Source: Schmidtea nova
Taxonomy: Eukaryota
Reading direction: 5' to 3'
Length of the DNA: 64,000 bases
Assembly (NCBI GenBank): GCA_044892505.1
Contig: CM097883.1
Coordinates: forward strand, 48,422,001 to 48,486,000
Part shown: one piece after another, positions 60,701-64,000 of the stretch
Position numbering within the stretch: the stretch's first letter is position 1
Layout: every line of letters starts with the position of its first letter
Notes under the pieces: model-generated
Databases searched by the model: none
Seen by the model: only the letters and a program-made list of their open reading frames with translations
What the model was told of the DNA's origin: nothing
Translations under genes and position numbers: made by a program

Positions 60701-63700
60701 AAAATTCGTTTGTGACCAGAAAACACTGTTAACGTTATTAGATAGAGGAAATATCATAATTTCCAAAAACAAAGAGGAGTGTAAATTCGAAAGCGAAAAA
60801 GAAGCATTATTCAGGAAAATTAGGGAATGGTGTGCAAAATCGCTAACCAAGACGATAACTTACAAAGATATATCCATTTTTCAAGATAAATACAAAACGG
60901 TGGAGGAAGAGTATGACAAACTAATAGATATACTAAACCACCCTGAAAAATGCAAACAATACATAAGTCGAAAGGAAAGAGAAAGCAAAAGGAAATTTAC
61001 ACCACTTTTCAGCGCAGAGGTACCATATCAAGAAAGGTTAGATGCGATACAGGACAAAGCAAAAGAACTATTACCAGAATTCGAAAATTCTAAACATACA
61101 CTGGAGATACTCGGATCAATTGTGGAAAAGGTACACGCATATGCGGAAGGAACTTACAATGAAAACGATATGATGATCATAAAAAGAGAAATGCCAGTGA
61201 CTTTCTTATTAACAAAGAATGGAGTATTGCCAATACATAGAGCCTTACGAGCAGGAAAAGATAGGAGGGTAGTCGAAATTGCACGGTTGATGCAAGATTG
61301 CGGAAGTGACATGAACATGAAAGATAAAAAGGGAGATACCCTCATGATATTCGCAGCAAGAGCGAACACAAAAACCCGAGTGTTACAGGAACTGTACGAA
61401 GCAGGTGCAGGACTCATGGGAAGAACTAACAAAGACAGCTCAATACTAGACGTAGCGTTGTTAGCGCACAATTGGGAGGTGATAAATTTCATAAAAACAA
61501 TCACAAATCAGGAGGAAATAAAATACCTTACAAGGACAGTTAAAAAAGCTAGCGTACATTCCATGATGCATAACGCTGAACTAACTGAAGCAATACTCAA
61601 TTGGATGAACCCAAACACCAATGAACCAGCATTCAGGATCAACGAGTGCATGGAACAAGGCCAAAATTTGTATATAAAGTGTGCATTAATAATAAACAAA
61701 TGGCCAAAGATAATAGATATCTTCATGAGAAGAAAAGATTTACGATTCACAAATAACCCAAAGGAAACAGAACGTACGGACAAATGGAAAGAACTAATGA
61801 AAACGTACCTTAATAATTGGATAAAAGCCAAGAAAGAGATTCTAGATTGTAAATTAACCGATAAGGAAATACCTAAGCAGGCAGTAACACAAGAATATGA
61901 AGCAAGTATACTCACAACCATAACGTATGAAAAAATGATAGAAGCAATTAATGTCGAGGACGACATTTTCAACGACCAAAGGGGAGGCGACAATACAGGA
62001 AACGACGACGATAGTACTCGAGAAAATCCAGAGGATCATGAGTTATCAGATGAAGAGGACAGTGAAGAGAAAGGAAGGGACACAGAGAAAAATGATAAGA
62101 AAAATGAATTTGGGAAACAAAGAAACAACAACTATAAAAATAAAAACGAAGCAAAAAGAACAGGCTACAAACAAACAATAAACCCATTCTTTAAACCAGA
62201 ACTATTATTACTAACGGTAATCATGACCTTAATTAGTCCAACTCAAGGAATGATATGTGAAGAAAGAGCGACAATACAAATTGGAAACGCAAAAGGAATC
62301 GAACGAGTATGTTGGTCAAAAAAGGACAAAATATCGGGACAAAATAGTCCAATGGATTGCAGGATCTCAGAATATGAACAAGAAATCATAGAGATCGATG
62401 ACTTAGAGCTAGATACTTGGTACAAAATATGCACCATCAGAAAACAAAAGAATCCAAGATCACACAACACAATAGCATGTGCAAACTACCTAACGCCCAA
62501 AGTAACCATAATAATACAGCAGTCATCCAAAGGAGACTATGTTGTAGGAAAGTGTGGAAGAACAGAGACACAAGGAACAAAAAACAAGAAACCTCAGACA
62601 ATAGACAGACGAACAACGCCAACTATACAAATTACCATAGACAGGCCCGAAGCAAGAGTAACCACAAACGAGACCGAAAGAGTGACCTACCAAACAGAAT
62701 TACTATGTTTAGCACTCTTATTAACAATGTTAAAACGGTTAGAAGAAGGGATAGACATTGACACAATGGCAGTAACAGAGATGAACGACACCCAAAACAC
62801 CAACCCAAAGTGTTGGGCCAGAAGCAACGAAGAAATTGGCGTAAGCGAAATAAAGACGAGTCGGAAAAGGAAAACAAATAAAGTAACCAAGATATCAGAA
62901 GTAAAAGCAGATAAGACGTACGAACTATGTTTACTAGAAAAAGAAAGACACAAGAAAGGAACGACAATTTGTAAAACATTTCAACCTGGGGAAACAATAA
63001 AGTTCATAAGGCGAGGAAGAAAAAATATACGCACCAAACGGAGAACAACTATAATGTTAGAGTTAACCGGGATAGAACCGGACGTCAAAGGCGTATGCTG
63101 GAAGAAGCAGGAAAAGAAAACAAACCAGAATACACCGCCGCAATGTCGAACAAACCGAGGAACAACCACAATACAGATAGAAGGGTTAGAAAGTAATCAA
63201 ACGTACGAAATATGCCTGATCAGGAAGAGCGACAAATTAACAGTAAATGAACTGGAATGCAAAATATATAAAACACCCACCAGAACAAGAATTGGAAAGA
63301 CAACGCGAAAAAGCAGAAGACAACGGAACAAAGGAAAAGCGAGGTATACCACTACTTTTGAACCTAATGGACAACAGAAAAACCAAGAAATACAAATAAA
63401 AACCGAAAAGAATACTACAGCAACTCTTATACTATGGAGAATAGACAATAAAACGTTAGAAATATGTTGGGTAATAGTTCAGAAACAAAGGGAAAGACAG
63501 CCACGAGACTGTGGAAACGTGAAAGGAAAAGAGGAAATAAGTATCAGAAATCTGAAATTCAATAGCGAATACGAGATATGTGCGATAGAAAAGACGGACA
63601 TACTGGGAAATCAGCAGGAAAGATGCGAAACGTACTACACACCGGTAAACTCAACGTCCAAAGGGAAAGTGAGAAAACTCGAATTTAAAGAATTAAGTCA

Positions 63701-64000
63701 GACAACGAAACAAATGGACGCGGAACAAGTAGTAATAGACCCTTACGCAAGATGGACGCCGGAAGAAGTAATTAAAGAAGTTAAAAGAAAACAACAAGAA
63801 CGAGAACAACTACTAAATAAACTAAAGGGACAATACGGACCAATGATTAACCAGAGTGAAATTACGAAGATGGACGTAAACAAACAAGTTAGAGAACTAA
63901 TTGGTCTAGGAATACTAGTAGCAACTATTCCAGTAATAACAGTATTATTAATAATATGGATATATGATGTATTCAACAAGAAACCAATAACACATTGGCC
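48720..64000 (+). CDS. Giant Gag-accessory-Env-Pol-accessory polyprotein, at least 5,093 codons, 3' incomplete (first ATG 49179)
   Basis: The frame starting at positions divisible by 3 is open from TAA 48717 to the window end by hand translation; no track ORF ends in this frame. Gag about 49200-49690; CCHC x3 49890-50045; PR DTGA 56601; RT YIDD 57816; RNase H TDAS about 58260; IN HHCC 58908-59030 with DDE core. Confidence 0.93.
54159..56090 (+). CDS. env: Envelope-like glycoprotein domain (chuvirus G / class III gB-like) within the polyprotein
   Basis: Signal peptide LNLSSIIMMMLIWMISTDGATA|FEVFDC. Ordered Cys motifs C...FYCG, YCQG, KCG..M.ETNYP, YMNNK, DC.LNR, GEVMYVYIC, CTNEL....YVQPVTRII, C...W, GFYS.KDL...R..I.FP. 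TM 55899-55961. Confidence 0.8.

Follow-up and report, generated by a model that had tools for sequence, protein, structure and literature searches.

The closest described systems to the element reported here are the Burro/GYPSM1 elements of dugesiid planarians and the GAG-ENV-POL errantiviruses. The Burro review describes giant elements with Env placed in frame after Gag and before Pol, among them one of Dugesia tigrina with a 5,140-aa ORF1 (ORF, open reading frame). That account leaves roughly half of the Burro polyprotein unannotated and names no fibronectin type III (FN3) domain, signal peptide or transmembrane (TM) segment past the integrase (IN) (PMC6431247). GAG-ENV-POL errantiviruses with an HSV/gB-type Env have been reported from Platyhelminthes, Nematoda and Bryozoa (PMC13524379). 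The 64,000-nt stretch of Schmidtea nova DNA analysed in this study (GCA_044892505.1, contig CM097883.1, positions 48,422,001 to 48,486,000, forward strand; hereafter the window) carries a multicopy, Burro-like gypsy long terminal repeat (LTR) element of ~28.5 kb that extends into the DNA reaching 3' of the window (L011). By description, not by sequence, the element matches Burro/GYPSM1, with which it shares a length of ~28 kb, one giant ORF (~5,000 aa), an in-frame Env, ankyrins, TRAF/MATH and a RING ORF, and its frame is as long as the D. tigrina ORF1; the MATH_TRAF ORF is placed upstream in the published account, whereas here it lies downstream of ORF1 (PMC6431247). Taken alone, this resemblance would point to a dugesiid planarian as the probable host. 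Its LTR pair, target duplication and order of protease (PR), reverse transcriptase (RT), RNase H and IN are those of Ty3/gypsy LTR retrotransposons, while a gB/chuvirus-like Env between Gag and Pol gives it the gene order and Env class of the GAG-ENV-POL errantiviruses (PMC13524379). The last 650 residues of this Burro-type polyprotein can now be assigned to an FN3 membrane protein, a real, selected cassette within a known giant element.

The surface cassette is not an independent gene but the C-terminal ~650 aa of a single 5,140-codon frame, in which Gag, gB-like Env, PR, RT, RNase H, IN, ankyrins and the cassette follow in that order. ORF1 (49179..64000 in the window, open from 48720; it and the parts given below as start..end are on the plus strand) runs from its first ATG to 142 nt beyond the window, continuing for 47 codons to a stop at L011:2140-2142, and encodes 4987 aa counted from that ATG (stop to stop, 5140 codons). 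The cassette has no start of its own, as its first in-frame ATG (62223) sits inside the signal core. It comprises an internal signal-like segment, four Cys-bridged repeats, a type I TM helix and a 58-aa tail. The signal-peptide-like segment (62193..62249; hydrophobic core 62202-62234, 11-residue Kyte-Doolittle (KD) hydropathy 2.97), following an acidic and then a basic linker, is succeeded by repeat 1 (62250..62498; Cys at 62310, 62358, 62430 and 62478), a Thr-rich linker with a conserved sequon at 62667 (62499..62696) and a second hydrophobic patch with a Cys at 62706 (62697..62732). This patch is too short for a full TM, its best 19-mer scoring +8 kcal/mol on a simple insertion scale versus -2.3 for the TM helix. 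Next come repeat 2 (62748..62987), which has three Cys and lacks the C' cysteine; repeat 3 (62991..63278), with four Cys and a basic insertion containing RTKR (63030-63041); a basic linker (63279..63341) with RKSRRQR at 63306 and R-[RK]-Q-R at 63315-63326; and repeat 4 (63342..63644), modelled as FN3, with Cys on strands C/C' and F/G and a sequon at 63447. A membrane-proximal stalk with sequons at 63648 and 63849 (63645..63896), the TM helix (63897..63965; 19-residue KD 2.78) and the start of the tail (63966..64000, on to L011:2139) complete the cassette. With the signal and TM predicted from hydropathy, these features and the conservation of Cys and sequons are compatible with a type I membrane glycoprotein.

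The signal-like segment, four CW motifs, basic stretches, second patch and TM listed in an initial annotation of this DNA were all found where it had placed them and in one frame. CW motifs occur at 62310, 62811, 63096 and 63465 and Y-x-[IL]-C at 62421, 62919, 63204 and 63570; the consensus it had drawn from them is exact in repeats 3 and 4, while the second Cys is missing from repeat 2 and repeat 1 has YKIC. Kinship among the repeats was above chance in five of the six pairs (at most 1 in 1000 shuffles scored as high, z 4.8-18.9), the pair of repeats 2 and 4 falling short in this pairwise shuffle test (z 1.9, 51/1000 shuffles). In line with the suggested duplication of a unit of signal peptide and FN3 domain, the signal and repeat 1 are related, in register, to the patch and repeat 2. 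The ectodomain contains 18 Cys, including an extra pair flanking repeat 1 (62256 and 62553) whose members are, cassette by cassette, either both present or both absent. The even Cys count would be accounted for by two bonds, one between the patch Cys and the unpaired Cys of repeat 2, the other between the two Cys flanking repeat 1, which are both absent from the second cassette of a sister family (see below); we infer this pairing scheme from these patterns.

The ectodomain repeats probably adopt the FN3 fold, modelled for repeat 4 and extended to repeats 1-3, each of which is homologous in sequence to repeat 4 or to another of the three. The structure model of repeat 4 (pLDDT 82) is a beta-sandwich with strands B, C, C', E, F and G in FN3 order, and all of its best 50 structural matches contain FN3. 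Strand A is unformed in the model (pLDDT <50, residues 1-9); the modelled construct starts after a conserved YTTTF, which may be strand A. Protein language-model (Atlas) neighbours are likewise fn3 for both cassette halves (scores 0.82-0.89). The FN3 fold proposed in the initial annotation is thereby supported, by a model for repeat 4 and by sequence and language-model neighbours for the other three repeats. At the Pfam curated cut-off none of the 29 repeats searched matched fn3 or Interfer-bind, with sub-threshold matches to fn3 in 4/29 (best E 0.091) and to Interfer-bind in 1/29 (E 0.0053). Among the structural matches of repeat 4, no receptor family ranks clearly above the rest, and cytokine receptors tie with other FN3 proteins within 1 Z.

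The cassette is common and under purifying selection. Of 2058 candidate matches in a protein search, 150 were scored, comprising 89 of family A (78-100% identical) and 61 of family B (64-69%); 143 were free of stops, and 23 had exactly 5140 open codons in one frame with Env and Pol. The ratio of nonsynonymous to synonymous substitution rates (dN/dS, from pairwise counts on related copies with dS partly near saturation) was, against eight family B copies, 0.20 for the cassette (602 codons), 0.08 for the signal and 0.02 for the integrase; against six older family A copies the cassette value was 0.33. The basic linker had 0.60 and the stalk 0.12. Conservation was assessed in 43 copies open from signal to TM, drawn from 49 loci of which six were broken or unmatched by the pattern. 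Each of the 18 Cys is kept in 42-43 of these 43 copies, compared to a mean identity of 91%, and four sequons are kept in all 43. The number of sequons in the cassette is not significant (P 0.17) and is marginal in the second cassette of family B (P 0.025). Families A and B are 71% identical in the cassette but 99% identical in RT, indicating that the cassette sequence diverges far faster than RT.

Family B frames are longer (~5650 codons), and in them the first cassette is followed by another, ~28% identical to it and made up of a signal, three repeats, a TM and a tail. The second hydrophobic patch is retained in both family B cassettes, and cassette 2 has 12 Cys in five of eight full-length copies and 13 in the other three. 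Family A aligns with family B through the end of the first TM, jumps ~1.5 kb and rejoins B in the second tail; the match begins at W604, and the family A tail shares 37-38 of 48 residues with the second tail of B versus 13-15 with the first. The simplest reading of these alignments is that family A lost cassette 2. The TM-loop-signal-ectodomain-TM layout of family B is the expected product of alternating translocation. One family B copy (L046:4480-6324) has a 5147-codon frame that ends soon after the first TM.

The idea of furin-like linkers fared less well. Basic RxxR motifs are not clearly enriched in this Lys/Arg-rich frame (6 observed versus 3.2 expected, P 0.085). RTKR, one of the two proposed sites, is lost in 9/9 family B copies and apparently lies inside repeat 3, where it aligns between likely strands A and B, a position that is acidic in family B cassette 2. 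An Rx[KR]R motif is found in the ectodomain of 5/5 family A copies versus 0/7 family B first cassettes, and none is present in the ectodomain of family B cassette 2. No Rx[KR]R is conserved in an exposed linker; what is conserved, in 43/43 open copies, is the minimal RxxR of the repeat 3-4 linker (R-[RK]-Q-R, aa 377-380), and because of this retention one cut or a polyanion-binding patch is possible there. The case for furin processing and shedding of the ectodomain is weak.

A membrane protein past the integrase is also found in relatives. Two distant GAG-ENV-POL families in the same genome (C and D; 3401 and 3393 codons, RT 54% identical) end after the integrase in a signal, a ~330-aa ectodomain, a TM and a short tail. 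A search for long proteins returned 37, nine with an in-frame PF24664 Env domain and 28 long RT proteins without it. A signal-like segment was present in 9/9 and a C-terminal TM in 8/9 of the Env polyproteins, compared to 0/28 with either feature among those without Env, under thresholds set after inspection and with 20 of the control proteins coming from one arachnid. Class I PDZ-binding C-termini were found in 6/13 such polyproteins, in three RT-tree lineages, versus 0/28 (0.007 expected per sequence); the window polyprotein ends in a class II-like motif only. The content of the slot varies, with an Ig domain in P0030 (Ig_3 E 1.5e-5), FN3 here, and one cassette in family A but two in family B. 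Six slot ectodomains carry C-x2-L-x2-3-[TSH]-x-Y motifs recalling FN3, for which homology to the window repeats was not detected. Across the sequences surveyed, the post-integrase membrane-protein slot travels with Env, and the cassette is apparently one filling of this wider, previously unreported glycoprotein slot. Separately, families C and D have a 3' ORF of ~480 aa with a DEDD-exonuclease-like motif noted by eye (L064:6185-7636, L067:6443-7852), the L064 copy giving no Pfam match, and P0020, P0021, P0022, P0024 and P0027 have two to three aspartic-protease-like domains, one of them past the integrase.

We propose, with a probability of about one half, that the cassette is a second envelope or surface glycoprotein, cut from the polyprotein by signal peptidase, that aids the fusogen by attachment or adhesion. 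The Env in the same frame is a Monjiviricetes-type fusion glycoprotein (PF24664, E 4.2e-68), which bears out the initial annotation in placing a second surface protein beside a fusogen, its translocation being predicted. The Env signal would open translocation and the Env TM close it, with Pol and the ankyrins synthesized in the cytosol; translocation would then resume at the 62193 signal, signal peptidase would release the ectodomain, and the TM at 63897 would anchor it with the tail in the cytosol. This alternating scheme draws on hydropathy and on known viral polyproteins with internal signals. The second hydrophobic patch would most likely enter the lumen, where its Cys would bond the unpaired one of repeat 2, and the ectodomain would form a chain of FN3 modules carrying disulfides and glycans. 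Produced in equal number with Env and on the same membrane, the cassette could bind host cells or hold neighbouring cells together and so let the gB-like fusogen act, whether on particles or where cells meet. Rapid divergence is common in host-facing binding proteins, and the varied slot content and fast divergence fit such a protein, while class I PDZ-binding ends fit a cytosolic tail. The interpretation in the initial annotation, an adhesin for the fusogen or shed receptor decoys, is supported in part; it missed the polyprotein tail, the two cassettes of the sister family and the slot kept in relatives. More tentatively, GAG-ENV-POL gypsy elements as a group may use two-glycoprotein entry, in which a conserved gB-like fusogen is joined by an exchangeable, host-derived Ig/FN3 attachment protein in a fixed post-integrase slot with a sorting tail, often PDZ-binding, with internal signal peptides freeing both from a single Gag-to-tail polyprotein. 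Between families, the slot would have undergone duplication, loss and refilling, and it may determine which cells the element enters.

There are several other potential explanations for the cassette. It is possible, though rather unlikely, that the FN3 ectodomain is a surface decoy or signalling receptor that mimics a host cytokine or injury receptor and damps death or immune signalling in the expressing cell; it would act alongside the TRAF, RING, ankyrin and Bcl-2-like parts of the element, and the basic linker might be where part of it is shed. Apoptosis and ubiquitin domains are a known feature of Burro elements (PMC6431247), and the present element has a RING ORF, ankyrins and a full TRAF-type ORF 574 nt past the ORF1 stop. 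Two other families in this genome nevertheless keep the slot with no TRAF in the following ORF, and the cassette tail lacks a canonical TRAF-binding motif. IFNAR1, IFNAR2, GHR and gp130 do appear among the FN3 structural matches and one repeat approaches Interfer-bind, but cytokine receptors rank no higher than fibronectin, Dscam and tenascin; for shedding, the invariant R-[RK]-Q-R is favourable whereas RTKR is unconserved.

Entry exclusion or Env escort, in which the protein stays in the producing cell and chaperones or masks Env or blocks a host receptor with no role in attachment, appears improbable. Its inferred one-for-one synthesis with Env on the same membrane, its invariable company with Env in the sample and its conserved stalk would suit an escort, but variation in Ig/FN3 content and in copy number is easier to reconcile with outward binding than with the escorting of a conserved fusogen. 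A topology in which the second patch stops transfer and leaves repeat 1 alone in the lumen and repeats 2-4 cytosolic, or in which the internal signal is unused, is very improbable. Over nine residues the patch matches signal segments in hydrophobicity; KR comes after it, both cassettes conserve it, and by eye it looks like the beginning of the TM of family C (ELLC in L070). Against this, the patch scores badly for membrane insertion over 19 residues (+7 to +11), 42-43/43 copies retain the Cys pairs and sequons that lie beyond it, and in family B the TM is followed by basic residues (+5).

The remainder of the element is consistent with a young insertion, because the 3.28-kb LTRs are 99.8% identical over 3279 nt (5' LTR 42937..46214, TG...CA; 3' LTR L011:6138-9415) and there is a 4-bp target duplication, ATTG preceding the 5' LTR. 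Directly after that LTR is a primer-binding-site-like stretch (46221..46239), which we take to be tRNA-Pro-like, followed by an accessory ORF of 153 aa with a C3HC4 RING finger (46543..47004; PF13920 E 1.4e-11). Within ORF1, Pfam places a CCHC motif at aa 274-288, PF24664 at aa 1935-2276, the protease at aa 2461 and the Pol matches at aa 2461-3403. Env (54156..55973, from Pfam and hydropathy) has an internal signal-like segment (core 54165-54197), a gB/chuvirus-like ectodomain and a TM (55917-55973), and is followed by protease, RT, RNase H and integrase (56559..59387, by Pfam) and a first block of ankyrin repeats (60252..60521; Ank_2 E 2.5e-12). Ahead of the first ATG, 153 Met-free in-frame codons (48720-49178) form part of the 5140 shared by many copies, and a non-ATG start is possible. 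A Bcl-2-like stretch with a BH2-like end (near aa 1625) was seen by eye just upstream of the Env signal (53700-54060), with a similar one in families C and D; Pfam matched neither this stretch nor any of the BCL2-like or BIR motifs of Burro elements. A recurrent [IV]-N-M-M-R-type motif (50226, 50310, 50448, 51108, 52497 and 59997; twice near-identical, INMMRATN/MNMLRATN) marks candidate cut sites for the element's protease.

Past ORF1, the TRAF-type ORF (L011:2716-4098; 460 aa with RING-like region, TRAF zinc fingers, coiled coil and MATH, E 5e-21) is also present in family B (L069:8640-9998, minus strand). A 190-aa ORF with a signal-like start, coiled coil and TM (L011:5361-5933), conserved in family B (L069:6796-7356) and with no Pfam match of note, is a possible third membrane protein. 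Coiled-coil-like ORFs of 118 aa (L011:2268-2624) and 353 aa (L011:4217-5278) between ORF1 and the 3' LTR could be assigned to no family. The LTRs contain ORFs of 158 and 194 aa (L011:7475-7951 and 8271-8855; window 44275-44751 and 45071-45490), and family B has similar ORFs at L069:4806-5306 and 4033-4623. In the 5' LTR, the copy of the second is shorter (139 aa from its ATG). The 5' untranslated region has tandem arrays at 47418-47978 and 47983-48220 (61-nt period, ~41-nt and 42-55-nt units), and upstream of the element are long ORFs of 838, 321, 154, 238, 370 and 522 aa (22209-24725, 26804-28304, 37246-40631).

No account of an FN3 cassette was found in the literature on Burro, retrotransposon FN3, errantiviruses or GAG-ENV-POL elements, although earlier annotation is possible; the main text of the errantivirus study mentions neither fibronectin, Burro nor ankyrin, and the passages of it consulted describe no second glycoprotein (PMC13524379). 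The ORF3s of rotifer LTR elements are also extra TM proteins with Cys and RxxR, but they are separate short ORFs that replace Env, and fibronectin is not mentioned in the text describing them (PMC5408684). With host FN3 proteins (fibronectin, sDscam, L1CAM, LAR, IFNAR1, GHR and gp130) the cassette shares the FN3 sandwich over 64-82 aligned residues (rmsd mostly 2.4-3.7 A), yet at 7-18% identity, and it differs in having C-C' and F-G pairs in one domain and in lying within a retroelement polyprotein. The F-G disulfide is shared with the LRR-FN3 group such as ELFN, and Fn3_ELFN matched at E 0.06; no donor was found among 20 host fn3 loci. No link to viral glycoproteins by sequence or fold was found (BFVD best E 0.05). 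Were the cassette a decoy, it would be the part facing outward in an element with an existing link to stem-cell survival. Were it an attachment partner, studies of whether Burro-like elements move between planarian cells, and how they do so, would gain a testable surface marker. Relatives with an in-frame Env keep a membrane protein at the same place. Flaviviruses and alphaviruses likewise produce their glycoproteins from one polyprotein with internal signals, and separate attachment and fusion proteins are found in paramyxoviruses (H/G with F) and herpesviruses (gD with gB); the present element differs from all of these in being reverse-transcribing and integrating. As an attachment partner, the cassette would mean that envelope-bearing retrotransposons can divide binding from fusion, as paramyxoviruses and herpesviruses do.
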